Of a stretch of DNA of 45,144 nucleotides, positions 4,627 through 31,614 are shown one piece after another. The notes beneath the pieces are model-generated. The model did not search any database. It was given only the letters and a program-made list of their open reading frames with translations, and was not told the DNA's origin. The stretch covers positions 1 through 45,144 of the forward strand of contig JAUCBJ010006678.1 in the NCBI GenBank assembly GCA_032718475.1. Reading direction: 5' to 3'. Positions within the stretch are counted from its first letter, which is position 1. The number at the start of each line of letters is the position of its first letter. The translations under genes were made by a program, and so were the position numbers. This DNA is from Nemertoderma westbladi. Lineage: Eukaryota; Animalia; Xenacoelomorpha.

Positions 4627-4629
4627 TGG

Positions 4630-6140
4630 TGTTCGCGGTATTTCAACTTTTCATAACGCGAGTTGAATATTTTTTGTATTTATTTAAAATGATTATTCCG
4701 ATATTACTACTGGGTGCGGGACCATGGGTTTTGGGCACATTCAATGGACTGGGGGCGATTTATGGGCGAACATTGGGGCAACTTACAGGGTACGGGAATA
4801 ATTTCATAGTTATAAGGGCCAGGGGTGGGAGGCAAAGTTAAGCAGTATTCAGGTTAGCCTGAGTACTATTAGGCCCTGGCCAACTTCCTGCTGCCTGTAG
4901 AGGTGGATTTGGTAACGCGCCAGGCCTAAAGGACAAGGACTGCCCTTAGTGGCCCCTGGCCAACAGCAGTTATTACGAGCCTGAAAAGGACATCGGAACG
5001 CCGGCTGCTTGCGCCAGGGATTCGCGACGGGAAACGACAGCCCCCTTAGCTAAGCCGTACTGGTTCTCAATGACCGATCCCTTCGGGGTTCGCGAGGGGT
5101 GGGACGGACATGCGAAAGGGTGGCCGACTTACAGAGGAAGGGTTTGACGAGGACTGCCCTTAGCGGTCTCTGGTCAACAGCAGTTATTACGAGCCTGAAA
5201 AGGACATCGGAAAGTCTGCTGCTTGTGCCAGGGATCTGCGACGGGAACCGACGACAGACCCCTTAGCTAAGCCGTACTGGTTCTCGATGATCGTTCCCTT
5301 CGGGGTTCGTGATGGGTGGGACGGACATGCGACGGGGTCGAAAGACAAAAGACTGGACGCTACTGGCCTACCGACTGTTCGGAGCAGTTTCTCGGCTGCC
5401 GAAGCGACTATGAGCCTGAATAAGGACTCGGAAAGCCTAGGTGGTTGGGTCTCTGCGATGAACCGACGGACCCCTAGCCAAGCCGTACTGGTTCTCGATG
5501 ATCGAACCCCTCGGGGTTCGGGAGGGGTGGGACGGATACGCGAACGGGTCCACCGACATGACAGACTCCTAGCCAAGCCGTACTGGTTCTCGATGATCGA
5601 TCCCTTCGGGGTTCGGGAGGGGTTGGACGGATAAGCAACAGAGTCTACCGACTGGACCGACCCTTAGCCAAGCCGTGCTGGTTCTCGATGATCGATCCCT
5701 TCGGGGTTCGGGAGGGGTGGAACGGACACGCGATAGGGTCGACCAACACCGACACTACGGCATCAAGACTAGGACCGAGGGAAAATCTGGGGAACATTAG
5801 TTAGGCTAAAATCTGAGCGAACAGTGGGTTATTAAATAATATACTGTAGGGATTTATATTGTCGTGTATAATTATTGTGAATATTTGGTGTATATTGATT
5901 TGGGGAAGCCCAATTAATTCTCAATCAGGGTTCAATGATGTTGAACAGGGTTCAACAGTAGGAAGTTACATTAAAGAGTATATCCAACCAATGCAACTTT
6001 TCTTCAACCGCAATCCTGCATCTAAGAAATTTCTCCTTCTCCACAATCAATATCCGGTGACTGGCCGGGACTCTGTGGTCTGTAAAGTCACGTCTCCAGC
6101 ATCGGCGTTTTTCCCCCCTGGTGTTGGGATAACGGCAACA
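4630..6140 (+). repeat. BEL/Pao 5' LTR
   Basis: TGTTCGCGG...GGCAACA; collinear with 17314-18824, about 22 substitutions counted by eye and no indels seen. Confidence 0.97.
5045..5735 (+). repeat. five ~70-nt GC-rich hairpin repeats inside the LTR (also present in the 3' LTR)
   Basis: Unit tagc(t/c)aagccgtactggttctcgatgatcgatcccttcggggttcgggaggggtgggacgg at ~5046, 5263, 5475, 5569 and 5664. Confidence 0.9.
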
Positions 6141-6142
6141 AA

Positions 6143-6154
6143 ATTGAGAATTAA
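6143..6154 (+). other. non-tRNA primer-binding site, complementary to LTR 5914-5925 (putative self-priming)
   Basis: ATTGAGAATTAA begins 2 nt after the LTR end and is the exact reverse complement of TTAATTCTCAAT at 5914-5925. No TGG-initiated tRNA PBS next to the LTR. Confidence 0.7.
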
Positions 6155-6387
6155 CACGGTCAATTTTGATAGGGTATCAAAATTGAGAATTAAACGCGAC
6201 CAACTTCAACTGGTGGAAGTTGGGAATTCTTCAATACTCTTCAAACTCTCTCCGTGCTTACCCAGCACCCACTACGAGGAAACTCTGGTATTTGAGTTAA
6301 GACAAAGTTGTGGTTTAATCAATCAACAAACTCGATCTAACCAACTCGTAGTCAGCAAATCACATATTGGAGAGTTGTTAACAGGGA

Positions 6388-6579
6388 ATGGAAGTATCGA
6401 TCACACCCATTGATATCATCCAAGTTGAGCCAGGAATCTGGCACGTCGAGGTGGAAGTACAAGGAACAAACGTCGGACGATTCAGGATTAACATTCGGGT
6501 GGTCCAGGCTGAGTACAATACTTACGAGGAACTATTCTACGACATCGCATATCTTGCTATCAACGAGGCGTTGGAATAA
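6388..6579 (+). CDS. 63-aa upstream ORF overlapping the gag start (TAATG)
   Basis: ATG-initiated, protein-like alternating hydrophobic pattern; its TAA shares the A with the gag ATG at 6579. Confidence 0.5.
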   Translation: MEVSITPIDIIQVEPGIWHVEVEVQGTNVGRFRINIRVVQAEYNTYEELFYDIAYLAINEALE

Positions 6580-9500
6580 TGGCAAACAACGTATCCGATA
6601 TCGATGAGATGGACCACCACACAGATTCGGAAGCCGACGAGGTACCGAACGTCAAGAACATGACCCGTCGACTAGGGGCTCTCAAGGGCGGAGTAACTCG
6701 AGCGTATCAACGGATAGAGAAACAACTCAAGGGAGTCAAAACCCCCCTCAACGAGATACAAACTCAGCTTCAAAGTATCCGAAATATCCTACAGCGATAT
6801 GAAATAATGATACAGGCGTACCAAGAGCTCGTTCCCTCCACCGATCAGGAAAACTACCCCAGGTTAGAAGAACACGTTGTACATCTAGATGGGTTCCGCA
6901 AACAACACTGGAGGACCCTCAGCCTTGTGAGAGGCTATGAAGAACAGTACTACAAGAGAGCTGAAAGAACAGACGCAGAATCAGTGCGAACCTCCAGCAC
7001 CAGGACAGCAGTACATCGAAAGAGAACGGGGTCCTCTAGAAATCAGCACTCCAGCGCTAGGAGCGCGGTGTCCGGTTCAGCACACAGCTCTCAAGGGGGT
7101 CAACCACTCCGAGACCAGCTACGAGAACGGAAGGCATTAGCCCTCAAAGCTCGGATGGAAGATGAGTATATTCAACTGCAAACCGAGCAAGATGTATTAG
7201 CCGCCGAAATGCAAAAACGAGAGGCCGAACGGCAGGCCGTACAACATGAACAGGATGCTGAACAATGTGAACAGGAGGCTGAACAACGTAGACAGGAGGC
7301 TGAACAACATAGACGAGAGGCCGAACGGCAGGCCGAACAACGTAGACGGGAGGCCGCACAACGTGGACGAGAGGCCGAACGAGAGATCGAACAACGTAAA
7401 TGGGAAGCAGAAATGCGTAAACAACACGCCGAGGCCCAAGCGATTCTCATCCACAAAAAGAATGCTGATATTGCGAAACTCGCGGAATATGAAGCCGCAC
7501 TTATAGAACGAGATATTCAACTATACGAGGACTGGGAAAGGGAAATAGATCAGGATTATGAACCAATCCTGGTACCGGAGTTAGAGAAGTCATTTACACC
7601 AACAGCGGCAAAACTTCCGAAACCCGAGATCCCGCCTACCAAACAGTCTACGTTATCGGCACAAGCACCGGTGTTCCATCCCCCACCGGTTACGCTTAAA
7701 AATGAGGAACCGTATTTCCCATCCAACCCCACGACAACGAGTGTATCCAAGTACGAGCCTGAAAGGGACTCGGAACGGGACGCCACTCCCCGATCCAACA
7801 ACCCATTTACATCCACACCACAAACCCGTAGTCGCGTCCTCATTAAAACTCCACCTATCATTGATCCATCGAGTATGGGAGTGAGTGCCAATAACTATAA
7901 CCCTCCGAGTCACTCCAGTTCAGACGACGTCGGTATTATCCGGGCGTTGGAAAACCGCCTTGCCAAGCCTAAGATGGAGATCCGCACCTTCGAAGGAGAT
8001 CCCGTCGATTACCTCAGATTCAAGAAACGGTTCTTTGCGCAGATTGGATCAACGGACATAGCCGACGCACAGAAATTGGTATATTTATCGCAATACCTGG
8101 GTGACAAACCACGCCGAATTATGGCATGTTTTGAGGGTGGTTCTCATGAGGCATACTATGACGCATGGAAAACTCTAGATAAAAGATACGGAAATACCGG
8201 AACTATAATTAATAAAACTCTAGAGAGACTGATACAGGACACGGGATCACTAGGGGACCCACAGAACATCCAGGAATTCTCCGACTCTATGAAGGATGCC
8301 TACTATACTCTGAAACCCTTAAATAAGGAGGACCAGGTGAACAACATTCTAAACCTCCGACAGATCGCCCGGAAGTTCCCCGGATGGCTACAAAGCAAGT
8401 GGGCTTATAAATGCGTAGATCTCCGGCGCAGACATCCAGATCGAGATCCTAGCTTCCTTGAAATGTCGGCATTCCTGGACGATATCTCCGAAGCCATGAA
8501 TGACTCGATGTTTTCAAAACAGAGTCTCGCCAAGTTGGACGGAATAGAGAGCAACTCCAGGAGTAAGATACCCCCTCCGAAACCGAGATTCCGCCCCCCA
8601 CCGGTGAGTACGATGGCCATCACCATGGCCGAGGATTCCGACGACGAAGACTACGAGGAACTGACATCCGCCGAGGAATGGGCATGTTATCTCGCGAATT
8701 GGGCACCCGAGAGGGAAGGCATCACAAACTCCCTGCTCTGTCTCTATTGTGGAGAGAAACATAAAGTTGAATTCTGCAGGAAGTTCCAGTTTGCCGAACT
8801 CGTCCCACGCTTCGAAGCGATTATGAAACACCGAGGATGCTTCCGGTGTCTTGGTACAGGTCACTACGTTCGGGAGTGCGACCAAAGGTCGTGTTGTGCG
8901 GTTTGTAACGACCTACGTCATCACACGCTCCTCCACATCCCCGCGAACTTTGACTTCACTACCCTCCCCTTTCGGATTGAAACAAAGCGAAGAGGAGAAA
9001 CGAACCACGTTTCTAAAGGATCCCGGACAACCCAACGGAGAGAAACCAACCCGTTTAAAACCTCCACTAACGCATCACAAGTGACAAATATCTCAGCCAC
9101 GATCAACCTGATAAATCGCCGTTACATGGTCTTCGCTAAGGTAATCCCAGTAAGAATTCAGGGAGTCGGCAAATCCTTGACGACACTCGCGTTCCTTGAT
9201 AACGGGTCGGACGGAACCATCATCGACCGGGATTTCCTCGAGCAACTCGGCCTAGACTATGAACCTTGCAAACGGCCCATACAAACTATCACCGACAACA
9301 GAGAGGTACACTCCGGGGAGGTGCAACTCCAGATGGAAGGAGTAATGAAGGGCTACGAAACGGTTAAGTTGACCATCAAGAACGCCTTGGTACACACAGA
9401 CCTCCGAGTGCGGTTCCGACAATCGGCCGAGTACGCCCCCCTCATACAGCTGGATCGAGACGACGTAGACCTACGGTGCCCGCCATTGGATGTAAACTGC

Positions 9501-11525
9501 ATCACCCTACTGATCGGACTTGATACACCGGAACTACTCATCCCCACCGGAGATATCGCCCGATCTATAAAACAGGATGACGGATTTTATGCTGAACGAA
9601 CAATAATGGGATGGACACTCTGCGGCATTAAGGAAGAAACTACTGACACCTATACCTACCTTCCCAGATGTCAGATTAAAGAGAATGCAACCTCCGTGGG
9701 TTATTGCTCAGCTACGGACCTTGACGAGGATATGTTTCTGGAGACCGAGAAAACCCAACAAGAGATGACGAAATATTTTAATCTAGAGACCCAGGAGTTC
9801 GCTGAAAAGGACGAAAACCCGTCCGAAGAGGATCAATATTGTATGGACGTTCTCGACCAGGCCACGTTCAAAGACGGACACTGGTGTTCACCTATGTTAT
9901 GGAAGGACCCAAACAAACCAATGGCAATCAACGCCAGCATGGCACTTAGGCGACTTAAGGGGATTCTACGCCGGCTGAATGACCAACCCGAGATAAAGGA
10001 GAAATATAATACCGTAATCCATGGATATCTCGACGATGGATTAGCAGAAATGGTACCACGGAATGAACTGCAAGGTGGTAAAAGAACATATTATCTCCCA
10101 ACCCACTATGTGGTAGAAGCCCGGAAGGGTGGGAAAATCCGAGTGGTAAATGATGCCGCCGCTATGTACCAGGGCGAATCCCTAAACAGTCAGCTTTACA
10201 CGGGACCCAACATATATAGTACACTCATCGGCGTATTGATCAGTTTCAGGGAAAACCGGGTAGCATTCACCTGCGACATCAAGGCCATGTTTCATCAAGT
10301 TCGTACGCTACCAAGAGACTCAGACTGTCTACGTATCCTATGGACGGATAAAACACTAACTCAACAGGAGATTAGTCAACTTACGATAAAGGACGTAGAC
10401 ATAATGCGTATGGTCGTCAGGATCTTCGGCGCTAAGGACTCGCCGGTAGCATGCAGTGACATGCTGAAGAGGACGGCAACTATGTGCGAAAACGAGTTCC
10501 CTCCAACCGTCATAGAAACCATCCGACGATGCTTTTACGTGGACGACGGATGCGCCGGCGCAGATAATGTGGACGAGGCATATCGGCTAGCAATGGGGAT
10601 GGTAGAATGTCTAAAGAAAGGAGGTTTTCCGCTCGTGAAGTTCAGATCCCACAACAAAACACTTATGGAAAAGTTTCCGGAGGACATCCGACTGGAAAAT
10701 AACAAAATGTATTCGGAGGATGTGGAACACCGTGTACTCGGGATTGAATGGGACATAGAATCAGACGAATTCATTTTCAAATATAAACCCCTACCCAAGC
10801 CTATGACGAAAAGGGGATGTTTGTCGATAAAAAGCGCCATCTTCGACCCACTAAATTTCATATCTCCAGTAACCTTGGCCGGAATGAACCTGATTAAGGA
10901 AATGTGGATAGAAGGACTGGGATGGGACGAAGAACTCCCCCCACACCTCAGCGTCAAATGGAGAAAATGGACGGAGCAGCTCGAACACCTACATCTTATG
11001 CGGATCCCTCAACCGTTCTTCCTCGATAAACTACCCACCGATATCTTCCAGCTCCATACCTTCTCGGATGCTTCGAATACCGGAATCGGCGTAGTCACCT
11101 TCTTACGAAGACTAAGCAACGATGGAAACGGCGATACGAGCTTCTTATTTTCTAAAGCTAAGACAGTATCCGGGGAATTCGTAGCAACGATTCCAAGACT
11201 CGAGTTACAGGCTGCAGTTTGGGCAGTGAGACAGAACCGCATGGTCATGCGGAACCTACGAATCCCCATCGAATCTCAACACTTCTGGGTCGATTCGAGT
11301 ATCGTTCTCTACTATCTCCACTCTCCATCCCGACGTCACACTACGTTTGTTGCGAACCGAGCCACGGAGATTAAACAGTGTACCGGCCGAGAACAGTGGC
11401 ATCACGTGAACGGGAAAGAAAATCCAGCGGATTTATCAAGCCGAGGCGCCACCCCAAAACAACTCGGTAAAAGTAAGCTCTGGCTTACAGGTCCGGAAGT
11501 CCTACAGCAGCCACAATTAACATAG
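6579..11525 (+). CDS. gag-pol: BEL/Pao Gag-Pol: coiled-coil Gag, DUF1759-like region, zinc knuckles, aspartic protease, RT, RNase H (ends at premature TAG)
   Basis: FEGDPVDY..F, CLYCGEKH..C / CFRCLGTGHYVREC / CAVC..HHTLLH, FLDNGSD, DIKAMFHQV, FYVDD, FSDAS, TIPRLELQAA, NPADLSSRG. Confidence 0.96.
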   Translation: MANNVSDIDEMDHHTDSEADEVPNVKNMTRRLGALKGGVTRAYQRIEKQLKGVKTPLNEIQTQLQSIRNILQRYEIMIQAYQELVPSTDQENYPRLEEHVVHLDGFRKQHWRTLSLVRGYEEQYYKRAERTDAESVRTSSTRTAVHRKRTGSSRNQHSSARSAVSGSAHSSQGGQPLRDQLRERKALALKARMEDEYIQLQTEQDVLAAEMQKREAERQAVQHEQDAEQCEQEAEQRRQEAEQHRREAERQAEQRRREAAQRGREAEREIEQRKWEAEMRKQHAEAQAILIHKKNADIAKLAEYEAALIERDIQLYEDWEREIDQDYEPILVPELEKSFTPTAAKLPKPEIPPTKQSTLSAQAPVFHPPPVTLKNEEPYFPSNPTTTSVSKYEPERDSERDATPRSNNPFTSTPQTRSRVLIKTPPIIDPSSMGVSANNYNPPSHSSSDDVGIIRALENRLAKPKMEIRTFEGDPVDYLRFKKRFFAQIGSTDIADAQKLVYLSQYLGDKPRRIMACFEGGSHEAYYDAWKTLDKRYGNTGTIINKTLERLIQDTGSLGDPQNIQEFSDSMKDAYYTLKPLNKEDQVNNILNLRQIARKFPGWLQSKWAYKCVDLRRRHPDRDPSFLEMSAFLDDISEAMNDSMFSKQSLAKLDGIESNSRSKIPPPKPRFRPPPVSTMAITMAEDSDDEDYEELTSAEEWACYLANWAPEREGITNSLLCLYCGEKHKVEFCRKFQFAELVPRFEAIMKHRGCFRCLGTGHYVRECDQRSCCAVCNDLRHHTLLHIPANFDFTTLPFRIETKRRGETNHVSKGSRTTQRRETNPFKTSTNASQVTNISATINLINRRYMVFAKVIPVRIQGVGKSLTTLAFLDNGSDGTIIDRDFLEQLGLDYEPCKRPIQTITDNREVHSGEVQLQMEGVMKGYETVKLTIKNALVHTDLRVRFRQSAEYAPLIQLDRDDVDLRCPPLDVNCITLLIGLDTPELLIPTGDIARSIKQDDGFYAERTIMGWTLCGIKEETTDTYTYLPRCQIKENATSVGYCSATDLDEDMFLETEKTQQEMTKYFNLETQEFAEKDENPSEEDQYCMDVLDQATFKDGHWCSPMLWKDPNKPMAINASMALRRLKGILRRLNDQPEIKEKYNTVIHGYLDDGLAEMVPRNELQGGKRTYYLPTHYVVEARKGGKIRVVNDAAAMYQGESLNSQLYTGPNIYSTLIGVLISFRENRVAFTCDIKAMFHQVRTLPRDSDCLRILWTDKTLTQQEISQLTIKDVDIMRMVVRIFGAKDSPVACSDMLKRTATMCENEFPPTVIETIRRCFYVDDGCAGADNVDEAYRLAMGMVECLKKGGFPLVKFRSHNKTLMEKFPEDIRLENNKMYSEDVEHRVLGIEWDIESDEFIFKYKPLPKPMTKRGCLSIKSAIFDPLNFISPVTLAGMNLIKEMWIEGLGWDEELPPHLSVKWRKWTEQLEHLHLMRIPQPFFLDKLPTDIFQLHTFSDASNTGIGVVTFLRRLSNDGNGDTSFLFSKAKTVSGEFVATIPRLELQAAVWAVRQNRMVMRNLRIPIESQHFWVDSSIVLYYLHSPSRRHTTFVANRATEIKQCTGREQWHHVNGKENPADLSSRGATPKQLGKSKLWLTGPEVLQQPQLT

Positions 11526-11609
11526 AGTACCCGATTCAACCCCAAACTCAATAGCGGAAAATACTCCGAGGATGATAAAGAGATCCGTAAAGTCCATAGA
11601 AGCAACGCA

Positions 11610-12314
11610 GTGGAAATTTATAGTTGTCTGACTGAGCCTGCAAAGGACTCGGGCAGGCACTATAACGTCGCGACGATCACTCAACCAGCGGCGTCTTTAC
11701 ATCTGTTGATTGAGCAAACTTCATCAATGAGACGGCTCATCCACCACGTTATAACCCTTCGCAACTTCCTACGGTGGAAAGACAACAAACCGATAGTTCA
11801 ACGGAGTATACAAGAACTCATTATCGCGGAGAAGTGTATCGTTGGATATGTCCAGAGAGAAAGTTTCCCCGATGAGTGGGAACAACTTAGTGCGGGCAAA
11901 ACCTTGAAACTGGACAGCCCAGTCTACCAACTGAGACCAATGATGGGAGAGGACGGACTGATCCGACTGAATACCCGGATGGCAAACGCCCCGGTCGAAT
12001 ATGAGGTTAAATACACGGCGCTTCCGCCCGGAACGTCGACACTAGCCAAGCTATTAATTCAACAATGTCACGAGGAAAACCATCACGCAGGACAGAACTG
12101 GATTATAGCTAATATAAGACAAAGATATTGGATCACCCACATCCAGCCACTGATCCGGAAAGTGTTGAAACGTTGCTTTATCTGCAGAAGATATCTAGCG
12201 CCACCACTCACACAAAAGATGGCCGACTTACCAGCCACCCGTCTACAGTCCGATTCCCCACCGTTCTACGTCACCGGAGTGGACTGTTTCGGACCGTTTA
12301 CAGTCATCGAATGA
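11610..12314 (+). pseudogene. pol: BEL/Pao pol continuation: integrase HHCC zinc-binding region (same frame, between two nonsense codons)
   Basis: HEENHHAG..RQRYWI..CFICRR, MADLP..R, TGVDCFGP; same frame as 6579. Confidence 0.93.
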
Positions 12315-12383
12315 CGATCCAACATCAAATGCTGGGGAGCCATTTTTACCTGCCTTAGGTCTAGAGCAATTTACCTAGACATT

Positions 12384-13241
12384 GTGGTAAACCTTACGCA
12401 ACACGCGTTCATCAATGCTCTGCGTCGGTTCGTGGCGAACAACGGGACATGTCGTCACATGCACTCCGATAATGGTACAAACTTTGTGGGAGGAGAACGA
12501 GAACTTAGAGAGGCGATCGAGGGATGGTTTACCGATAACACCGCATCCCAAGTCTGGAAGGAACACCAGATACAGTGGCACTTCCAGACCCCCTTAGCAC
12601 CCCATACGAGCGGGGTATGGGAGAAACTGATCGACTTAGTAAAACGGTCCATGCGCGTCGCTCTAGGAGACACCCGGGTAACCCATGACAGCCTCCGCAC
12701 CACATTCTGCAAGATCACGGCTACCCTGAACAACCGGCCCATTGTCCCTATCCGAGACAACCCCACAGACCTGGAGCCCCTCACTCCTAACCACCTACTG
12801 GGGAGACCCAAAACCCATGTTCTCCCAGAGACCATGTTTCCGGATCCCAACGATATCGCGAGACATACAAATTGGAAGAAGGCCCAAGCGTTGGCAGCGC
12901 ATTGGTGGAGAATCTGGGCCCAGAAGTATCTCATAACCCTCCGGACCAGGAGGAAGTGGAACAACACCTACAGGAATGTCGCAGTTGGCGACATGGTATT
13001 AGTAAAAGAAGATCTTAAAGACCGCGTCCACTGGCCTGTGGCGCGAGTCGCGGCAATACATCCGAGTAAAGACGGACTTGCGAGGACTGTGATGATACGA
13101 ACGGCAAAGGGCCACTACCAACGCCCTATCCAGAGGCTGTGCCTTCTCGAAGGCAATGACAGTGGTGATTCTACGAGAGGTGATAAGTTCCCTACTCAAG
13201 ATCCTGCTGCGGACATTGGTGACAATTACAAATGCGTTTAA
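12384..13241 (+). pseudogene. pol: BEL/Pao integrase core and C-terminal (DUF5641-like) domain
   Basis: SDNGTNFVG, GVWEKLI, LNNRP, LTPNHLL, W..YL..L..R.KW, DG..R.V; same frame after TGA at 12312. Confidence 0.94.
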
Positions 13242-13514
13242 ACCCTTCTCATCCTGTTGACAAACTCATCAAACTGTGATTTATCGACAATGATAATGGA
13301 CCCCCCTTAAACCAACTGTAACCACGCAATGGTATTTGTGTTTCCTCGTGTGTTATGTGGAGTCCAGCGTCACCCTGCAGATGTTTCGACTGACGCAGGG
13401 TCGTTTATGTATTGTTTACCCTGATTTTGGGCATCGGGACCGACGATATTGGATTATTGGAAATGGTAAAGATTTGAAGTGGAATTCATTGTATTCATTT
13501 CAGTATGTTATGTT

Positions 13515-13940
13515 GTCCGTTGCGTGCGCAGTTCGGGGCGTAGGCGGTGTAACGAGTCCAGCTGTAGATCCCGGATTGCCGCGCAACACCCCCTCTATCC
13601 CTTTATTCTGGTGGGTCCATGGTGCATCCACATGACTTCGACGATAGGGGGTTTTATGTTCTCAGTCGCGTTATTCTGGTGGGACCATTACGTGGATTTT
13701 GGGGCGTAGGCGGTGTAACGAGTCCAGCTGTAGATCCCAGAATGTTGCGTAACCCCATCCCACATGACTTCGTCGGCTGAGCTTTATGTTGTTGGGAGTG
13801 TTATTCTGGTGGGTCCCTGGTGCACTCCACGTGACTTCACTCCCAGCGTCTTCATTGTCCGTTACGTGCGCAGTTTGGGGCGTAGGCGGTGTAACGAGTC
13901 CAGCTGTAGATCCCAGATTGCCGCGTAACACCCCTTCCAC
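13515..13940 (+). repeat. three ~170-bp tandem repeats between pol and the extra ORF
   Basis: Core ggggcgtaggcggtgtaacgagtccagctgtagatccc at ~13536, 13701 and 13877. Confidence 0.88.
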
Positions 13941-14826
13941 AACAAAAATCTACCAAAGAAGATGATTGAATGTAGTTGGAAATGATGAAAAGAAACAGAC
14001 AACTATACTATAAACCGAATGATGATGCGTATGATGATGAAAATGTAATGATGCGCACCCTGGTGCTGCGCTTATAACAAATGATGATAGCCAGGGGGCT
14101 ATAACCCCAATGATGATGTGGAAATAAACAAAATTGAGAATAAATGGTGGAACTAAATGATGAAATATATGTGGAAATAAATGAAATGTGAAATAAATGG
14201 TAGAAATAAATGTGTTGAAATATGTTGAAATAAATGAAATGAGATGAAATAATAATGAGAAATGAAAAAAGACAAAAAAAGGTATAAAAAGTCTAAAGAA
14301 AAGAATTGGAAAAAAGAAAAGGACATAAAAAGTCAAAACTGGTTGGATATTAATGTATAGCTATAGTAACTGTAAATGCTGAATGTATTAGCAATAAGAT
14401 GGTAGATGCCTATATAGCAATGTTATTTAATAAACTGAATTACAAATAAACTGAATTATTCTGCAATCACTATAGTTTCAGACTTTCTGGACTTATAATT
14501 AACTGATCTAATTTGTAACGGACATAATCGTAAATATGGACCCAAATCGCCAAATTATCAGCGAATTACGTAACACGATAGATCTACTGGAATATTTGCA
14601 ACCTGGATCCCCTAACTTTGATACGAATTGGAGCGTCCTGATAAGAGAACGTGTGAATCATTAAATTCACTGGGCGAGAGAGGGACCGGATTCCAAGAAT
14701 CTACGAGCCCTCTGGTTAGCCGATGCTAGTACGAGACTGAAAATAACTCGGAACGCAAAGGCAACCAGAGGGGACGAGTCGTCGTTCTGGGAAACGTTCC
14801 GGCAAAGCGTCTACAAATCCCGATGT

Positions 14827-16197
14827 TTGATATACGACAACGAGGGAAACGCGACGCCCACCTCAAAAGTGATTACGTTGGCGAGATGTCAAAGTTTCGT
14901 CGACGACAAGAGTACGTACCTCGCCCACTGGGGAAACCTGTCGGAGTGTACGGCGACGCTACGAGAGGAACGTATATCGATCATCCAGAATCGCGACAAC
15001 TACCAGGAAAAGTACGGGGCGAAAGAATACGGTCGATCCTTGGTCGTCGTCCTCGGAACCCTGGACGGTTTGGTATTGGTATGTCGAATATTTCCGACAC
15101 CCAGACAGGAAGTGCAGGCAGCCGGAGCGATCTGGTTGCTACCTCCGGAAATCCAAAAGATCCTCTTCAACTTCGACATCATTAAAATCGGGTCGGATAT
15201 AAAGGCGGATGTCCGGAACAACTACGCGAACGCTCCTTCAGGAAGAAACCGACGAGACAACCTCAACGCCCTTAGCCATTGCATCGACACTCAAACGCTA
15301 TTAGCCTGGTTACGATTCGCCGAGTTCATGCGAGGATTCCGAGAGGTGAGACCGACGAAATCCGGGATCGGTTACCTCGCTGTGCTAAACGGCGGCATCG
15401 ACTTCAAACCCCAGAAATTCCGGGATTATAATAAAATATATGGTGGATACCCGGGATTAGAAATAAAGAGCGAGCGAGAGGGTCGATGGAAGGACGTTGA
15501 CTGGAAGTGGACGATACACCAAAGGTGGGAGAATCCTGATCGACGGAACTACATCTACGTCGTTATGGAGTGCTACACCGTCGCTAAGTTTATCTGTAAA
15601 ACTCTCGATAACCTCATTACGGCGGTTCCTCTTTCCTTCGTCGACTACGACTGGAACGAGGTTATAAACCACGCGTTCAAAGCGGTCGAGAACATCACAC
15701 CGGGAGAGACGAAAACGCTCGCCGTTATCGATTCCTGGGACGAGAGCGGACCTTACGACATCCCTACGATTACCGATATTCTCGGTGCGGAGGAGCCTCT
15801 GATTTCTTCGGAAGGGGAAGAACTATGGCTACATGAGGGTGTTCTACTCTCCACCCCAAAGCGACAACTCGAGTCGGAGGCCGCTTACCAACCGGCAGCC
15901 AAACGGGTTACCTCCGCCAAACCTACGACGGAAGCAGGCGTTTCCTCACCACTCGGCTTCGGTAGCCCTGCGAGGGAGTTAGTTACCACCTTGGCGTTAA
16001 ACCACTTCGGCGATACGTGCCAAAGGTTATCCCCGTATCCTTTCCCGGGTGGCGAAGACTGGTCGTCGGAGATTCCGAGTACCAGCAATCAACGGACCCG
16101 CTCAGCGATATTGGTCGAGAAGGGCCCCAGCGCTGCGCCGACTCCCGACGATCTCCTCGGAATCCCTCCGTCAAAAACCCCGGCACCTCTTCGCTGA
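14827..16197 (+). CDS. DEDDy 3'-5' exonuclease domain (WRN/EXD/mut-7-like)
   Basis: ExoI LIYDNEG, ExoII LPPEIQKILFNFDIIKIGSDIKAD, CIDTQ, GIGYLA..GIDFKP, ExoIII-like YVVME. Confidence 0.75.
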   Translation: MIYDNEGNATPTSKVITLARCQSFVDDKSTYLAHWGNLSECTATLREERISIIQNRDNYQEKYGAKEYGRSLVVVLGTLDGLVLVCRIFPTPRQEVQAAGAIWLLPPEIQKILFNFDIIKIGSDIKADVRNNYANAPSGRNRRDNLNALSHCIDTQTLLAWLRFAEFMRGFREVRPTKSGIGYLAVLNGGIDFKPQKFRDYNKIYGGYPGLEIKSEREGRWKDVDWKWTIHQRWENPDRRNYIYVVMECYTVAKFICKTLDNLITAVPLSFVDYDWNEVINHAFKAVENITPGETKTLAVIDSWDESGPYDIPTITDILGAEEPLISSEGEELWLHEGVLLSTPKRQLESEAAYQPAAKRVTSAKPTTEAGVSSPLGFGSPARELVTTLALNHFGDTCQRLSPYPFPGGEDWSSEIPSTSNQRTRSAILVEKGPSAAPTPDDLLGIPPSKTPAPLR

Positions 16198-16203
16198 CCA
16201 GCG

Positions 16204-17136
16204 GTGGCTACCACACCCTCCGTTCCTCAGGATCCTATGCGACTAACCCGTTGGTACGCCGAGCAAACCGAATGGATCCACCGCCAGAAACGGTCGTCCG
16301 AGTTGAGACCGACGGGATACAAAGAAGGTTATCTGAGCGAGGACCTACTACGCAAAAGCCCAGCCTTCCGCGGGCTACCGACCACCGCGAATATTCAGAA
16401 GAGCGACCGACGACTCGAGTATTACGTCGGCGTCCCAATTCCGATATTCCCCGGTCGAGAGATGCAGTTGGAGGTGTGCGGTGACTGTGGTTCGGAGCAG
16501 TGCCCACGCGGTAGAAGGAATCGGGTTACCGATTCGTGCCTCCAGCTCCTCGGGATACTCTATTGCCCATACTGCGCGACATCGGGCCACGACGTTTCCG
16601 TCTGTCCAATCCTATATAACCTCTGCACCACGTGCGGTTTCCATGGACATTCCTCTAGCCCCCGCTGCTATATCAAATGTCCTACCAAAGACGTTACCAC
16701 TATGGGAAATATGGTCATGTTTGAAACATACGCAAACAGCCACATAAAGACCAAGGTTCGGAGAAACGCTCGGAATATCGCGCAGGAGATGGCGTGCGGG
16801 TATTTTTCCTTCCCGGAGCGCCTCCATACGACGGCAACGCTACTTTTCCATTACGTGGATCTGTTGCTGAGCGCCGGATTATTCGGCCCATTCGAAGTCC
16901 TTAGACGCCTATACTCGTATAAAGAGGAGTTCGGTGACGGAGAGTGGTCCCTCGAGGCTCGCAACTCCGAGTTGGAACGACGAACCGACATGATCCCAAT
17001 GCCATCGAAAAGAAGAGCCGCCAGGAGACAAGCCGAAGCATTGCTCACGATGGATGTTGACGCTCCCCTTCCAGCTCTAGTGATCGACGAGAGTCGACGG
17101 GCGAAGAGGAGAGAGGCGTATCAGAGAAAGAAATAG
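16204..17136 (+). CDS. Cys/His zinc-knuckle cluster with basic C-terminus
   Basis: CGDC..., CPYCATSGHDVSVC (CX2CX4HX4C), CTTCGFHGH..C; ends RRAKRREAYQRKK. Confidence 0.75.
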   Translation: MATTPSVPQDPMRLTRWYAEQTEWIHRQKRSSELRPTGYKEGYLSEDLLRKSPAFRGLPTTANIQKSDRRLEYYVGVPIPIFPGREMQLEVCGDCGSEQCPRGRRNRVTDSCLQLLGILYCPYCATSGHDVSVCPILYNLCTTCGFHGHSSSPRCYIKCPTKDVTTMGNMVMFETYANSHIKTKVRRNARNIAQEMACGYFSFPERLHTTATLLFHYVDLLLSAGLFGPFEVLRRLYSYKEEFGDGEWSLEARNSELERRTDMIPMPSKRRAARRQAEALLTMDVDAPLPALVIDESRRAKRREAYQRKK

Positions 17137-17304: not shown

Positions 17305-17313
17305 GGGGGGGAC
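17305..17313 (+). other. polypurine tract of the BEL/Pao element
   Basis: GGGGGGGAC immediately before the 3' LTR TG at 17314. Confidence 0.85.
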
Positions 17314-18824
17314 TGTTCGCGGTATTTCAACTTTTCATAACGCGAGTTGAATATTTTTTGTATTTATTTAAAATGATTATTCCGATATTACTACTGGGTG
17401 CGGGACCATGGGTTTTGGGCACATTCAATGGACTGGGGGCGATTTATGGGCGAACATTGGGGCAACTTACAGGGTACGGGAATAATTTCATAGTTATAAG
17501 GGCCAGGGGTGGGAGGCAAAGTTAAGCAGTATTCAGGTTAGCCTGAGTACTATTAGGCCCTGGCCAACTTCCTGCTGCCTGTAGAGGTGGATTTGGTAAC
17601 GCACCAGGCCTAAAGGACAAGGACTGCCCTTAGCGGCCCCTGGCCAACAGCAGTTATTACGAGCCTGAAAAGGACATCGGAACGCCGGCTGCTTGCGCCA
17701 GGGATTCGCGACAGGAAACGACAGCCCCCTTAGCTAAGCCGTACTGGTTCTCGATGACCGATCCCTTCGGGGTTCGCGAGGGGTGCGACGGACATGCGAA
17801 AGGGTGGCCGACTTACAGAGGAAGGGTTTGACGAGGACTGCCCTTAGCGGTCTCTGGTCAACAGCAGTTATTACGAGCCTGAAAAGGACATCGGAAAGTC
17901 TGCTGCTTGTGCCAGGGATCTGCGACGGGAACCGACGACAGACCCCTTAGCTAAGCCGTACTGGTTCTCGATGATCGTTCCCTTCAGGGTTCATGAGGGG
18001 TGGGACGGACATGCGATGGGGTCGAAAGACAAAGGACTGGACGCTACTGGCCTACCGACTGTTCGGAGCAGTTTCTGGGCTGCCGAAGCGACTACGAGCC
18101 TGAATAAGGACTCGGAAAGCCTCGGTGGTTGGGTCTCTGCGATGAACCGACGGACCCCTAGCCAAGCCGTACTGGTTCTCGATGATCGAACCCCTCGGGG
18201 TTCGGGAGGGGTGGGACGGATACGCGAACGGGTCCACCGACATGACAGACTCCTAGCCAAGCCGTACTGGTTCTCGATGATCGATCCCTTCGGGGTTCGG
18301 GAGGGGTGGGACAGATAAGTGACAGAGTCTACCGACTGGACCGACCCTTAGCCAAGCCGTGCTGGTTCTCGATGATCGATCCCTTCGGGGTTCGGGAGGG
18401 GTGGAACGGACACGCGACAGGGTTGACCGACACCGACACTATGGCATCAAGACTAGGACCGAGGGAAAATCTGGGGAACATTAGTTAGGCTAAAATCTGA
18501 GCGAACAGTGGGTTATTAAATAATATACTGTAGGGATTTATATTGTCGTGTATAATTATTGTGAATATTTGGTGTATATTGATTTGGGGAAGCCCAATTA
18601 ATTCTCAATCAGGGTTCAATGATGTTGAACAGGGTTCAACAGTAGGAAGTTACATTAAAGAGTATATCCAACCAATGCAACGTTTCTTCAACCGCAATCC
18701 TGCATCTAAGAAATTTCTCCTTCTCCACAATCAATATCCGGTGACTGGCCGGGACTCTGTGGTCTGTAAAGTCACGTCTCCAGCATCGGCGTTTTTCCCC
18801 CCTGGTGTTGGGATAACGGCAACA
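17314..18824 (+). repeat. BEL/Pao 3' LTR
   Basis: Direct repeat of 4630-6140, followed by TSD ATTGG. Confidence 0.97.
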
Positions 18825-18829
18825 ATTGG

Positions 18830-20776
18830 TAAATCTGATATTTGTGTATCTTGAGTTAGTACTTGACAAATTGACTTGTAATCATTGTCAATGAGAATTT
18901 CTTTTTTTATGAACTCTAACGCACAATCTTGAGTTTCCAAATTATTCAAATCTTTCTTTAGAGCATTTAAGCTTGCGACCAATATCTGATTACTGAACTT
19001 ATTGTCAACCTCTAAGTCAGATATTTCAGCAACTGAAGGCTTGCTAACTGGAGCACGACTGAGTGCATCAGGAACACAATGTTCTTTGCCCCTTTTCCAT
19101 TCAACAGTAAATACATATGGTCCCAACTTCTCAATTATCCTCTGTAAGCGAGGGTTGTCAATCGCATCCAGACTCAAGCCATTACAAATTGATATCAAGG
19201 GTTTGTGGTCTGTTACCACTGTGAAACCGTGAAAACCCAACAAATATATACGACATTTATTTATAGCCCAATGTATCGCTAATAATTCTAGTTCACATAC
19301 CGCGTATCTGCTTTCAGTATCTGAAACAAATCTTGAGCCGCATTGAATTACCCGCCAGTTAGGTGATTGTGAGCAGCCATGGTCCTGCATCAGTGCAAAT
19401 CCTAGGCCATGTAGCCTGGAAGCATCCGTCCAAAGTGAAGTCCTCAATTTAGGATCAAAATGGGCTAAAATTGGCGGTAATGATAAAATCGTTTTGGTTT
19501 TATCAAAGGCTTCTTGGTGTTCAGGTAACCATTGCCAAACATATTTCGTTGAAAGCAGCTGCCTGAGTGGCATAGAGTTATGAGCTACATCGGGCACAAA
19601 TGAACCCAGCTGATTTACCAGCCCAAAAAATGATCTAAGATCTGTTACATTCGCTGGTATTGGAAATTTTGAAACTGCTTCTATTTTTGCTGGATCAGGG
19701 TATATGCCATTCTTGCTGATTTTAAATCCTGCAAACACCACTTCTTGACCAATTACAAATTTTTCTGGATTCATGGTAATTTGATGCTTGCTACAGCGTT
19801 CCAGAACATTATCAATAACATCAATGAGGCCATCTAGAGAATTGGAAAAACAAAGAACATCATCAACAATCTTTCGGACACCATCTACGCCTTCTAGGGC
19901 TCTATCACCACGTGCGCAATATTCATCACCTGAACTGCATAGTCCCATTGGTGCTCTCTTGTACATTTTCCTGCCCCAAGGGGTAATAAAAGTTGTCAAT
20001 TTTTGACTCTCATCATCCATCTCTATTTGCCAGTAGCCTTTTGTGGCATCTAATGTGGCAAACCAAGAGGCTGTTGGTGGTATTGATGAAGTGATATCAT
20101 TTGGTGATGGAAATGGGTGTACTGGCCTCTTTACTACCTTGTTAAGAGCCTTGTAGTCTACAACAAGGCGCACTCCCCCTTTTGGTTTCCCAACCACAAG
20201 AAATGGCGAACACCAATCAGTTGGCCCAATAACATTTTCAATGACACCCATTTTTTCCATGTAGTCCAACTCAGCCTTTGCTGATTCACGGTAAGCAAGA
20301 GGGATTTGGCGTGCTGTTATACACTGAATTGGCTTTGTATTACCAATATCTGTTAAATAGATATGCATGGCGGGCCCCTTCATAGCTTTGAAACTTGTTG
20401 TTGAATCGAAAACAGTTATGTACTTTTGTTTGAATTTCAACTTAAATAAATCAAGTTCATTTCTAGTAGGCATTCTAGTAGAATCAACTGGGAGTTTTTG
20501 AGCAGAAATAGAGAGTTTTTGTTCATTCTCAACATCAGTGTTACAAATAGTTGTTATCTGGCTTGCAAATTTAACCTTTTTAGATACATCATTTAGGCCT
20601 AACGACTTTTGAATAGTCATTGCATATTTAGTTTCTGGTCGCTTGAAGCCATATTTGCAAGCATCACTGTCTGAATAGGGGAAAGTCGGTGAGATAATAC
20701 CTAAATCAATGAGATTATGCCATGCTAAGAGGAGGTTATCCACATCAGGTGAAACATAAGCTGTAATTTCGGCCAC
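18830..20776 (-). pseudogene. pol: Gypsy pol: reverse transcriptase + RNase H (interrupted by BEL insertion)
   Basis: VRLVVDYKALN, LDATKGYWQI, PMGL, IVDD, TDASRLHGLG, ELELLA, TDHKPL, VPDALSR in ORF 18731..20776. The part left of 18830 reads into the BEL LTR. Confidence 0.95.
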
Positions 20777-20970
20777 ATGGTGAAGCCACTTAACATGAAT
20801 AATGGAAGCACCATAACATGCAAGTTCAGATTCTTAGCTGCAAAAATGCGCCTTTTATGCCTATTGTCTATTTTAATATTAAAATTATCAACAACAGAAG
20901 CTGGGATAATACACTCGGAAGCACCTGTATCAGGGAGAGCTTCTATAGTAAAGGACTGGGTTTTGGGGGG
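20777..20970 (-). pseudogene. Gypsy aspartic protease, frameshifted
   Basis: TQSFTIEALPDTGASECIIP reads in a shifted frame between gag and pol. Two apparently compensating indels (~20965 and ~20835), since gag and pol share a frame. Confidence 0.8.
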
Positions 20971-22222
20971 TCCAGACTGTCACTTCGCATAGAGGAGTAG
21001 ATCTACCATAATGTGTAGATGCATGACTAACACAAATATAGTTATTTTTTATATTTGATTTAGAATCCATGGAAGAGTTATCAATGTCAGGGTCATTGTC
21101 ATCCCTTTTTTTTATTAGACATACAGACTTGAAATGTCCGATGAGTCCACAATAAACACATTGCTTACCTTTAGCCGGACAGAACGACCTTGCATGCGGA
21201 TTAAGACCACAAAAAAAACATTTTCTGTTTGGTGTAGTTCTGGGAACTTGTAATCGATCACGTGATTGTGAACGGGTTCTTTCATATTGGTTTTGCTGCT
21301 TATTGCGTCTGTATGAAGACATTCTAGCTGAATAACAAGAACCAGTTTCGTCACTATAGTTACTAGCATTACTCGTACTATATAATTTATTACACCAACC
21401 TTGGTCGTTCTCGTTATTATTTCCTAAGGCTTTTTGGTTCGCTGCAGCTGTCTCCCATGCAAGACATTTTGCTTTAATATCAGATAAACTTTGACTTGAC
21501 ATCCTTAACAGTTCACGTTGCAGTTCACGGTCTTCCACAGCAAGAACAATTCTTGTAGCTAGTTGGTCATCGTATGTGATGTTTTCGAGTTCCGCATTCC
21601 CTCCCAGTAACTTTAGGCGAACAAAGAAATCGGAAAACCGTTCACCATATTTCTGTGCGCATTTGTGGAAATTGAAGCGGCGTGTCATGACGGACAGAGT
21701 TTCTGCCAAATATTTCTGAATAGTGTCTAGTACTTCGTCTACCGGAACTGCAGGACCAACGTCAAGAAGTAGCTCCAATGTTTGAACTACCTTTGAGCTT
21801 AAGCAACCGCGGAGATACGCTCGCTGCTCACGTTGACTAAACCTAGACATGTTGTTCGATGAAAAATAATCTTTGAAGCATGTACGCCAAACAATAAAAT
21901 CCGAAAGGCTCGTATCGGACTGAAGCTCTGAAGGTTTTAAGGCCATATTAATCCGCTGCGTTTGATTTGTGGCCGCAGAAGGGTATGACTGTTCTACAGA
22001 TCGCTGGTTTTGTTCCGAAATCCGTCGGATGCGTCGAATTTTCGCTTCTAGTTTCTGGACATTATCCTCCATAACCTCAAAGGATGAATAATGAGTTTCT
22101 TGATCGGCTTGATCGGCTGGGATGTTCTCCAATTCATGACATAATAAAATTGAGGAACGATATTTAGCTAAAGACCTTTCAACGATTTGTAAAAATTCCT
22201 CAGCATCTCTAATATTCTCCAT
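20930..22222 (-). CDS. gag: Gypsy Gag (Mag-like, two CCHC knuckles)
   Basis: RRFNFHKCAQKYGERFSDFFVRL major-homology-like region; CFFCG..H....C-PAKGKQ-CVYCGLIGHFKSVC. Confidence 0.9.
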   Translation of the reverse strand: MENIRDAEEFLQIVERSLAKYRSSILLCHELENIPADQADQETHYSSFEVMEDNVQKLEAKIRRIRRISEQNQRSVEQSYPSAATNQTQRINMALKPSELQSDTSLSDFIVWRTCFKDYFSSNNMSRFSQREQRAYLRGCLSSKVVQTLELLLDVGPAVPVDEVLDTIQKYLAETLSVMTRRFNFHKCAQKYGERFSDFFVRLKLLGGNAELENITYDDQLATRIVLAVEDRELQRELLRMSSQSLSDIKAKCLAWETAAANQKALGNNNENDQGWCNKLYSTSNASNYSDETGSCYSARMSSYRRNKQQNQYERTRSQSRDRLQVPRTTPNRKCFFCGLNPHARSFCPAKGKQCVYCGLIGHFKSVCLIKKRDDNDPDIDNSSMDSKSNIKNNYICVSHASTHYGRSTPLCEVTVWTPQNPVLYYRSSP

Positions 22223-22528
22223 TTCAGCGGGTATACCTCCGGAAGCGGGAAGTTGATCAACGCTATTTGTTAGTTGAGCAACATCGCGTTCTGCTTTGTA
22301 GGCATATTGACCCCGACTTCTGCGTGCAGTGCTAATTAATGTTAGGTTCTTTGCCGGTAGACTCCATACCGGTACGGTTGCAGTATGCAGGTATGGGAAG
22401 TAGGCCTACCTTACCAAAGTAAGCCTACCCTTCTATTACAGTATTATTCTTGATCCAGGATTAATTACCGCCGCCGTATATTAACGGGATTTACGATTTA
22501 GCAGTTTAAGGTTAGGACTGTAGGACTA

Positions 22529-24630: not shown

Positions 24631-26945
24631 TATGGCATACATTTGGTGTTTTTATTCGTTAATATTTTCACCTCAAAAAAGCGATTTTTTACACATAATA
24701 AATGATTTTTTACATGTAATAAATGATTTTTTACGTGTAAAAAAATATTTTTTTACGTGTAAATAAACGATTTTTTTATGTGTAATAAATTATTTTTTTA
24801 CGCGTAATAAATTATTTTTTTACGCGTAATAAATTATTTTTTTACGCGTAATAAATTATTTATTTATGCGTAATAAATTATTTTTTTACGCGTAATAAAT
24901 TATTTATTTACGCGTAATAAATGATTTTTTACGCGTAATAAATGATTTTTTTACACGTAATAAATTATTTCTTTACGCGTAATAAATGATTTTTTTACGC
25001 GTAATAAATGATTTTTTTACGCGTAATAAATGATTTTTTTACGCGTAATAAATGATTTTTTTACGCGTAATAAATAATTTTTTACGCGTAATAAATTATT
25101 TTTTCACGCGTAATAAATTCATTTTAACTTAGTATTCTTCTTGACCACCATATTGACAATCTCAAGAAATAGTACTGTCTGTGTTAAATGCTATATAGCG
25201 GCTTACCAATGGATGAACAACTCCAATAAGTTGGTCACCATGCCTTATTATTAAATAAAAAAGTTTACCGAGAACAGAAAACGAACCATTAGCTACATTC
25301 GATATATCTGCGGCAGATGGTACAATATGGTCTTCAATTACCAGAAACATAGAGGACGTTACTACATTGCTGATAAACGATCCAAAAAGATCACGCCGCA
25401 ATCCGCCTTGGTCACATCCTGGCTCCCCTGAAAATGTTACCAAAATCCCTTGGGTTGGATCTAACTTTGGGACGGCCTTTAGCAAATCTTGAACTAACAC
25501 CCGCCTCCGTATTCGAACTTTCTGAAAATCGTCAGGATCAGTAAACACGTCCAAAGTGTCATCATAGATGTAGCTAAATTGAATAGCCGAAATATTATCC
25601 AATTCCTGATTACTTAGACGCGATAGACTTAAGTCAGCCCAAAACTCGCGGGAACAGTCATTAGCATTAGCAAGTTCTGCTGGTGCTGCAGGTACATTGG
25701 CATTTTCGTCCTCACTATCCGAAATTACAAAATACATCATCGAACGTGTTATTAAGAACTGTACTACTAGAATTTAGAGCTGCTCTATCCCTTAAGACAA
25801 CATTCAAAGGTACAGGAGCAGCATCAGACTCAAAGACACATTCTGGATCACCGTCCGAAACTTGGTGATTTGAATCATCTGTTCGATTTTCCATTGTAGG
25901 AATTTGTACATAAATGTTTCTGGAACCTGGGTAAAGGCTACTTAAAACTTTCCCATAAAATTTAAAATCATTTTCTACGGATATCGGTTGAACAATCTTG
26001 CTAACGACCTTAACAAATTTGAAATTTGCATTACATGCTGGATACGCCTCTAAACAAGCGACGACCTTTGATTTGATGACTGCATCACTGTCGTGTTTTT
26101 CGAAAGACAGCACAGAATGTTTTATTGTGGAGTCTTTTCTTAGAGTCCGTAGTTCTCCAGGATTGAACTCTCGAATTACGATCAACGGCTTACTGTAGCT
26201 TATAATTTGAGGCCGACCCCTCGGCGATCTAAGGCCTAATGATATAACTCCTAATGACATTCCGATTCTGACTACGAACTGTAGGAATACTAGTACCCGC
26301 TATGCCAATAGATCGGCCACTCATACCTGACAAGGTTTGAAAGGGTCTATTTGCCGCTGGAGAATAAGGAGCAAATGCATTCTGAAGCTCACGCAACAAC
26401 CCTCGCCTATTGATTGATGGTTCCGCTTCCACTGTCACAGAATCTCTCAGGTTGGTGTTGATGTTGGTGGTTGTTTGTCCACAAGAAGAACAATATCTAT
26501 CCTGCGGCTTAAGGACAAAACCACATTCACAAATGAAGGTTTGGGTTGATTCATGGAATTATGCATTTTGGGGTTTAAACAAAATAAACATTATTTTATA
26601 TTTAAATGTCCCTCGAGAAGAATTATATTCTAGAATAATGGCAAAATAACCAATAGAATACCAAGTAAAAAATATTTTATTACGCGTAAAAAAATCATTT
26701 ATTACGCGTAAAAAAATAATTTATTACGCGTAAAAAAATATTTTATTACGCATAAAAAAATCATTTATTACGCGTAAAAAAATAATTTATTACGCGTAAA
26801 AAAACAATTTATTACGCATAAAAAAATAGTTTATTTACACGTAAAAAAATATTTTTTTACACGTAAAAAATCATTTATTATGTGTAAAAAATTGCTTTTT
26901 TGAGGTGAAAATATTAACGAATAAAAACATGAAATGTATGCCATA
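24631..26945. mobile_element. non-autonomous TIR DNA transposon, IS3EU-like (TATGG...CCATA, 6-bp TSD)
   Basis: Long TIRs tatggcatacattt..tgtttttattcgttaatattttcacctcaaaaaagc. TSD GGTAGT at 24625-24630 and 26946-26951. Inverted subterminal arrays of a ~21-bp ttttACGCGTaataaat unit. Confidence 0.88.
25162..26560 (-). pseudogene. zinc-ribbon + HECT-type E3 ubiquitin ligase (G2E3-like) remnant, frameshifted and C-terminally truncated
   Basis: ICECGFVLKPQDRYCSSCG at ~26480-26535; HECT N-lobe signature IRRR..V.D..ILVTFSGEPGCDQGGLRRDLF in ORF 25162..25740. Confidence 0.72.
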
Positions 26946-31354: not shown

Positions 31355-31593
31355 TGTAGTGAGCGCGATTCTCGCATTAGCGCGACTCACATCATTTCAA
31401 CGTAATATATTCAGATATTACAGTCAGGAACATGTACTATGTTGACACCAGGACAGCTGGTGTGGCACCGGTAGGTACATATATAAAGGCAGTAAACGGT
31501 AGTATGAGTGTAATATGAAGACTGACACGGACAGCAGTATGTTGTCCGTCGAAAGTGAAAGAATCTCACAGTTCGATATCTGTTACCGCTACA
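31355..31593 (-). repeat. CsRn1-like 3' LTR (239 bp)
   Basis: TGTAG...CTACA termini; identical to 35514-35721 over 208 bp. Confidence 0.93.
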
Positions 31594-31614
31594 CCACTCC
31601 CCCCAGAACCGTGA

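Follow-up and report, generated by a model that had tools for sequence, protein, structure and literature searches.

A predicted DEDDy-type exonuclease with zinc knuckles in the env position of a BEL/Pao retrotransposon from Nemertoderma westbladi

A BEL/Pao retrotransposon in the genome of Nemertoderma westbladi (Xenacoelomorpha) carries a third gene in the slot where env sits, and the product of this gene very probably contains a DEDDy-type exonuclease domain, followed at some distance by three Cys/His knuckles. The element lies on contig JAUCBJ010006678.1 (assembly GCA_032718475.1), all 45,144 nucleotides (nt) of which are referred to here as the window, and the gene, open reading frame 3 (ORF3), occupies 14536-17136 on the plus strand. 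An earlier, model-made reading of the bare sequence (the original prediction) had described a frame of about 866 codons with two stops, past the integrase and inside the long terminal repeats (LTRs), and this description is borne out. ORF3 comprises 866 codons and is interrupted by exactly two stops, at codon 43 (14662-14664) and codon 554 (16195-16197), and it begins 1294 nt past the gag-pol stop (13241) and ends 177 nt short of the 3' LTR (17314). The remaining two plus-strand frames over the same region contain 27 and 24 stops, while 2000 base shuffles yielded a mean of 36.6 stops and a minimum of 18.

ORF3 is present in other members of the element family. Contigs from four public sequencing runs (one organism, three studies), aligned to the element at 80% likeness, number 15324, 11558, 7386 and 232 per run over all likeness classes and cover ORF3 as well as gag-pol; none in the four runs covers the entire element. 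At the second stop the entire aligned depth differs from the window copy in all four runs. Near the first stop the contigs of three runs cease to match the window copy at 14678; hence this stop may have arisen otherwise than by a simple point nonsense mutation, and the first ~45 codons of ORF3 are uncertain. Among the 12 best-supported of 98 indels none falls in ORF3 or gag-pol (P ~0.007 for ORF3 compared with non-coding DNA, with the proviso that the best-supported ones may favour the LTRs). Many contigs are less than 95% alike to the window copy. Nineteen differences private to that copy, drawn from the 40 listed out of 1330 and out of 811, are distributed over codon positions 1, 2 and 3 as 10, 3 and 6, and the window copy therefore decays neutrally, with no third-position excess. 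The window copy is dead, and ORF3 is the gene of a multi-copy family.

The protein has a small circle of relatives. Searched exhaustively, a set of 1.84 billion proteins yielded seven matches, six of them real; P0008, which consists of Ig-like repeats, was dropped along with its cluster mate P0011 as a spurious match. Four of the six (P0003, P0004, P0005 and P0007) share the order of a nuclease-like part followed by a Cys/His domain, P0009 has the nuclease part without the Cys/His domain, and P0006 (cluster mate P0010) has the Cys/His domain without the nuclease part. In P0004 the nuclease is degenerate and the entire knuckle module is tandemly duplicated, the copies lying 585 nt apart. Word-based homologue searches gave no match, whether started from the entire protein, from its nuclease domain or from the alignment, a search of the ESM Atlas with the nuclease domain gave no usable one, tblastn against phages found none, and the family profile matched nothing in five bacterial genomes that have PF01612 genes. 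Scans for related loci found none in viral contigs, none in genome contigs and one in metagenome contigs. This metagenome contig, L001, provides the genomic context of one of the six relatives, P0004 (124-2025), whose ORF ends 47 nt ahead of a purine tract and a TG (2073); a CA follows at 3159, then GT and TGG, and then an acidic open frame that runs off the contig. L001 may thus represent an LTR element in permuted form whose gene occupies the equivalent slot, a reading based on one LTR-like stretch on a contig that carries no pol.

The predicted DEDDy-type domain extends over codons ~81-365 (14776-15630, plus strand), and the three motifs named in the original prediction, including an ExoIII-like one with glutamate, are present as ExoI (D101/E103), ExoII (D225) and ExoIII (Y341/E345). 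The D101/E103 placement is the best of 845 (9.5, the next scoring 2.0) and matches the D-x-E that follows a helix in the relatives. D225 falls in place in the alignment and, like Y341, is kept in ORF3. ExoIII reads Y341-x-x-x-E345, with E in place of D; P0003 and P0005 likewise have E, and P0009 has the canonical YxxxD. The full acidic set is kept in three of the five relatives that have a nuclease part, and the four proteins that keep D-x-E, D and Y-x-x-x-acid are 22-28% identical. An insertion of ~60 residues after ExoI (14845-15030, plus strand), helical in the model, is spanned by contigs covering 14184-15236 and 14746-15275 and is therefore common to other copies. An alternative placement of ExoI that dispenses with the insertion was rejected, since it scored -10 and lacked the acidic residues.

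Profile-profile comparison connects this domain with the PF01612 group. A five-row alignment of the domain matched four bacterial stand-alone WRN/EXD2-like PF01612 proteins in hhalign with Prob 91 and 95 (scores 49 and 57), the alignments being small (5 and 4 rows). In the controls, 50 column shuffles each scored at most 19.5 and 28.5, the reversed alignment 13, and six reverse transcriptase (RT), RNase H and integrase domains from the window, serving as decoys, at most 20.7. References of the polA type reached Prob 18-53, far below the WRN/EXD2-like ones, and those from RNase D, a poor match at Prob 1-4, were set aside. When the N-terminal part of the family profile was run against the sequences of the Protein Data Bank (PDB), Egalitarian was the best match (E 0.06) and EXD2 was among the others. 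As judged by these profiles, the ORF3 domain family is remotely homologous to PF01612 members.

The predicted structure tentatively points in the same direction. A weak AlphaFold2 model built from seven rows shows the helix-strand order of the DnaQ-like fold at residues 81-365, at a predicted local distance difference test (pLDDT) score of 37; a single-sequence prediction (pLDDT 32) was unusable. With entries classed by us, mostly from their titles, 40 of the 43 rows listed by Foldseek are of DEDD type, EXD2 first, and so is every one of the 22 solved chains that VIA-align places at Z≥5, led by EXD2 and Nibbler. The best VIA-align match has Z 6.8, below the caution line of 8, with a root-mean-square deviation of 5.4 over 108 aligned residues. 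A fold search of BFVD gave nothing at E≤0.001; the row with the highest probability in it (0.75) belongs to a 3'-5' exonuclease from a giant virus.

The Cys/His sites lie far downstream, at codons 648-711 (16477-16668, plus strand). Three knuckles had been predicted, and three sites are indeed there, of which one is an exact CX2CX4HX4C (677) and one has a longer final spacing, CX2CX4HX5C (697), while the first (648) is degenerate and lacks the His present in the relatives. The Pfam zinc knuckle PF00098 is not matched by the ORF3 protein and is approached by P0003 (E 0.046); the knuckles of the family profile bear a weak likeness to those of Lin28 and of retroviral nucleocapsids. A module conserved in the family alignment (FE-x-YA ... 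G-aromatic-F-x-FP ... Y-x-DLL; 16720-16881, plus strand) follows the knuckles and has no match in Pfam. The protein ends in a basic tail (17005-17133, plus strand) with 11 lysine or arginine residues in the final 40; five of the six relatives have 9-16 and P0004 has 3. This tail may act as a nuclear signal. The claims that the protein is not env and lacks a transmembrane segment stand with one correction: there is one strongly hydrophobic window, residues 168-186 (Kyte-Doolittle 2.08), which in the alignment and model is a β-hairpin of the nuclease core and no membrane anchor. No viral fusogen appeared among the matches from Pfam, PHROGs, Foldseek and VIA-align. That ORF3 is not env is thus supported by the lack of a membrane anchor and of fusogen likeness, a signal-peptide predictor not having been run, and, like the DEDDy and zinc-knuckle reading itself, by the relatives, by profile-profile matching with its controls and by two fold searches.

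Several points weigh against reading ORF3 as a nuclease gene. ExoIII departs from the canonical Y-x-x-x-D, and ExoI is separated by ~60 residues from the core strand that follows. The ORF3 protein alone has no real match in Pfam, PHROGs, NCBIfam or PDB sequences and gives Prob 40 in hhalign; the PF01612 cut-off is not reached, ORF3 having no match and P0003 attaining E 0.2 and 11.9 bits against the 23.6 required. The model is poor (pLDDT 37), no Foldseek row has E≤0.001 and the best Z falls short of 8, so that, of the checks for a DEDD fold proposed with the original prediction, the profile comparison gave a clear match, and the fold searches gave matches nearly all of DEDD type but below these thresholds. 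Neither half of the protein is constant among the relatives, given P0006/P0010 without the nuclease, P0009 without the knuckles and P0004 with its knuckle domain doubled, and most of the catalytic set is gone from two of the five nuclease-bearing relatives (P0004 and P0007). Taking both sides together, we hold the assignment to the DEDDy type to be highly probable; that the domain is catalytically active is, in our judgement, somewhat more likely than not.

[quoted passage not shown] Its plus-strand LTRs (5', 4630-6140; 3', 17314-18824) are 98.5% alike, with 22 differences, 16 of them transitions; the 5' LTR measures 1511 bp and contains internal repeats of 95 and 214 nt. The gag-pol gene (6579-13241, plus strand) combines gag (DUF1759), knuckles and the pol domains, is interrupted by two in-frame stops, and contains the BEL/Pao markers PF05380 (E 8e-37), PF03564 and PF18701 in Pfam. 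At the N-terminus of gag (7200-7440) a 21-nt repeat expansion encodes a Glu/Gln/Arg-rich, coiled-coil-like stretch. Between pol and ORF3 lies a non-coding spacer (13242-14535, plus strand) with an A-rich block and three repeats of ~83 nt (13500-13940), spaced 166-176 nt apart, for which Rfam and tRNA models gave no match. An acceptor-like TTTCAG in this spacer (14476-14481) was spotted by eye, and none of the seven joints of run X4 is a splice joint into ORF3. A polypurine tract, a G run with a 2-nt spacer, precedes the 3' LTR (17305-17313, plus strand). One contig of run X4 starts at 4840, ~25-29 nt past a TATA-like TTATAAG, a possible LTR transcription start, and the 3' LTR has the region 4810-4840 at its corresponding position. 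The loose end of this contig resembles what we take to be a template-switch library oligonucleotide, a hint that X4, classed as DNA by guess, may be cDNA. At 14.2 kb the element is long for BEL/Pao, which has a length range of 4.2-10 kb in the available part of one survey (PMC3118150) and animals as its only reported hosts in the available part of another source (PMC3601003).

With regard to function, the reading we favour, tentatively and short of even confidence, is that the product of ORF3 is a zinc-knuckle 3'-5' exoribonuclease of the DEDDy type, which trims RNA 3' ends and blunts the small-RNA silencing of the element. The protein would be translated from a transcript of its own, spliced or internal, and would enter the nucleus through the basic tail; the knuckles would grip single-stranded RNA and the nuclease would trim its 3' end despite the E in ExoIII, the presumed targets being RNAs of the PIWI-interacting (piRNA) or small interfering (siRNA) type or their precursors. 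Binding of single-stranded RNA and trimming of 3' ends are likely by analogy, because the RNase D of Trypanosoma brucei (TbRND) has the same two-part plan, and the ORF3 knuckles are predicted to bind RNA as those of the trypanosome enzyme do. Nibbler and Exd1 act as small-RNA factors. Counter-silencing is favoured because the protein has a basic tail and its nearest folds include these two, and the job seems not to be tied to one priming mode, because such cargo is met again in elements of the gypsy and Penelope-like types, and also in L001, which has a tRNA-type layout. The available part of a study of arenavirus ExoN provides a precedent for a DEDD-family domain in counter-defence (PMC7968707). 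Against this reading, in rotifers neither copy number nor cover by small RNAs was clearly tied to the type of ORF3 (PMC5408684). Were the enzyme active and able to blunt piRNA/siRNA silencing, it would be a rare case of an animal transposon coding for an enzyme of counter-defence.

It is possible, if less likely, that the protein is an adaptor, a catalytically weak or dead RNA-binding protein like Egalitarian, Exd1 or Maelstrom that helps in the export, transport, protection or packaging of element RNA. The E for D in ExoIII of ORF3, P0003 and P0005 would fit such a role, as would the loss of the catalytic set in P0004 and P0007, the knuckle-only P0006/P0010 and the place of Egalitarian as best N-terminal match in the PDB sequences, with fold matches to Exd1 (Z 5.7) and Egalitarian (Z 5.4). 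Mutagenesis of the Klenow enzyme, however, is said to have found that Glu at the ExoIII Asp position can still support catalysis, and the retention of D-x-E, D and Y-x-x-x-acid in four proteins of 22-28% identity goes beyond what would be usual in a dead scaffold. Maelstrom and EXD1 have been named as inactive parallels (PMC5408684).

A role in priming, one of three jobs listed in the original prediction, is unlikely, even though the element has an unusual primer site. The sequence just past the 5' LTR lacks a TGG, and thus no tRNA primer-binding site is seen. Instead, the sequence at 6143-6154 (plus strand), 2 nt past the LTR and repeated at 6182, is the exact complement of a 12-mer in the LTRs (5914-5925 on the plus strand, and 18598-18609), with the polarity and the 2-nt offset of a primer site; such an LTR complement also exists for 2 of the 11050 internal 12-mers that served as a control. 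The duplex is present in both the minimum free energy and the centroid folds of 5912-6240. The leader contains a perfect 12-bp hairpin (6160-6186, plus strand), two hairpins fall within 6141-6240, and the fold of 6135-6240 has z -4.18 (none of 200 shuffles was as stable). Other copies depart from the window copy at 5913/18597 and between 6151 and 6201. The complementarity makes the element a candidate for self-priming, and an exonuclease could trim the overhang to the edge of the 12-bp duplex, 2 nt from the LTR, and expose a 3'-OH; this would be a new step of reverse transcription, with an enzyme not described for LTR retroelements. A comparison of elements is in keeping with this idea: the gypsy element at 31355-35721 in the window has an ordinary TGG primer site, and L001, with its degenerate nuclease, has a tRNA-type layout and no self-complement longer than 8 nt. 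However, this comparison sets one element against one, the fold of the whole 5912-6240 stretch has z -1.9, and Penelope-like elements, which lack such sites, also have DEDDy genes. In Tf1/sushi self-priming the primer is cleaved by RNase H. The available parts of two sources describe this self-priming without a gene of this kind (PMC6317226, PMC5445492).

Action on DNA, either in proofreading for the RT or in trimming cDNA ends ahead of integration, is improbable, and proofreading is the weakest of the three jobs of the original prediction. Polymerases of the A family do use DEDDy domains to proofread, and polA-type references reached Prob 18-53; as available, one source ties nidovirus ExoN proofreading to genome size (PMC7968707), and this element exceeds the length range excerpted from the BEL/Pao survey (14.2 kb versus 4.2-10 kb; PMC3118150). 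Yet the gene is separate from pol, its knuckles are of an RNA-binding type, the WRN/EXD2-like references score far above polA, and the family is diverse, with many contigs less than 95% alike. Least credible of all, and already largely refuted, is the notion of a passenger, an env remnant or non-working sequence with motifs arisen by chance, to which the two stops, the lack of a direct database match and the 10/3/6 pattern of the 19 private differences might point, but this neutral pattern applies to the dead window copy only, the frame is open far beyond chance, the relatives share both domains and the motifs, one of them (in L001) also stands directly ahead of a polypurine tract and LTR-like stretch, and there is no membrane anchor.

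The surroundings of the element are rich in other repeats. The BEL/Pao element is inserted into the pol of a gypsy-type element on the minus strand (3937-4650 and 18731-22405), which has a PNMA-like gag; the break falls between RNase H and integrase, leaving RT-RNase H on the right-hand side of the insertion and integrase on its left. The second gypsy-type element (31355-35721, minus strand) has LTR cores of at least 208 bp that are 100% alike, a GC content of ~63% and a frameshifted pol. Fragments like a non-LTR RT lie at 37529-39320 on the minus strand, and at 38333-38448 they contain a perfect, spacer-free inverted repeat of 58 bp, possibly a fold-back structure or an assembly artefact. At 24631-26945 inverted tandem arrays of 22 nt surround two unnamed ORFs (25162-26299) in a foldback-type-like arrangement.

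Among known systems, cellular exonucleases offer the closest folds. EXD2, Nibbler/mut-7, Exd1, Egalitarian and WRN of the PF01612 group share motif order and, by prediction, fold with ORF3 and take the top ranks in all searches; ORF3 differs from them in its low identity (11-20%), in a score below the Pfam cut-off, in the 60-residue insert and in the E of ExoIII, and its subfamily cannot be fixed because the top Z scores are tied within ~1. TbRND (PDB 7c42), matched both by the knuckle profile (E 0.005) and by fold (Z 5.2), has the plan predicted for ORF3, a DEDDy domain followed by knuckles, which in TbRND are of the CCHC type, and the available part of its description reports that it trims small RNAs and that the knuckles confer binding to RNA and enhance cleavage (PMC7797062). 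Unlike ORF3, with its linker of ~280 residues and three knuckles, TbRND is a cellular mitochondrial enzyme with a 28-residue linker and four knuckles, and it serves here as a working analogy. The ExoN domains of the arenavirus nucleoprotein (NP) and of nidoviruses are of the DEDDh type. They resemble ORF3 in that, as far as the available text goes, a DEDD-family exonuclease with zinc sites resides in a selfish RNA replicon (PMC7968707), and they differ in having zinc fingers inside the domain, Lassa NP reaching only Z 3.8. With Tf1/sushi the element would share the absence of a tRNA site and a primer site complementary to LTR-derived RNA, but those are gypsy-type chromoviruses and some plant copia elements, for which the available parts of the sources describe no exonuclease cargo (PMC6317226, PMC5445492).

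The nearest parallel is found in bdelloid rotifers, where Juno and Vesta acquired DEDDy ORF3s at least twice and share them with Terminons (PMC5408684; the account is repeated in PMC5718144, as far as available). As in Juno/Vesta and Athena/Terminon, the BEL/Pao gene is a separate third gene, predicted to be of DEDDy type, after pol in the place of env, without the transmembrane or coiled-coil features of env; both have a D-to-E motif change and the same candidate functions, 3'-end processing and silencing having been suggested for the rotifer proteins, whose activity is undemonstrated (PMC5408684). The two differ in host element (gypsy-type and Penelope-like there, BEL/Pao here), in motif (DEED there, DEDE here) and in their Cys/His sites, with a Cys-His-Cys motif in two rotifer families and here a three-knuckle domain plus a conserved module after a long linker. 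The comparison is by description, no rotifer protein being recognisable among the seven unnamed matches from the protein search. The novelty claimed by the original prediction was thus overrated with respect to this kind of gene, for which rotifers provide a published case with the same list of functions, and stands for its BEL/Pao host. In its available part the BEL/Pao survey reports env in few elements and has no mention of 'exonuclease' (PMC3118150), and our literature search found no BEL/Pao exonuclease cargo, a weak negative as the slash spelling was likely missed and subscription journals, supplements, Repbase, GyDB and Dfam lay outside its reach. What is new is the host (BEL/Pao), the zinc-knuckle domain fused to the nuclease and the spread family, a nuclease plus knuckle domain that is unnamed in the libraries searched and offers natural variants (canonical, E-substituted and with lost catalytic residues) in elements with differing primer layouts. 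Exonuclease cargo in the env slot thereby extends from rotifer gypsy-type elements to BEL/Pao, and that unrelated retroelements have captured DEDDy genes repeatedly suggests a need common to them.

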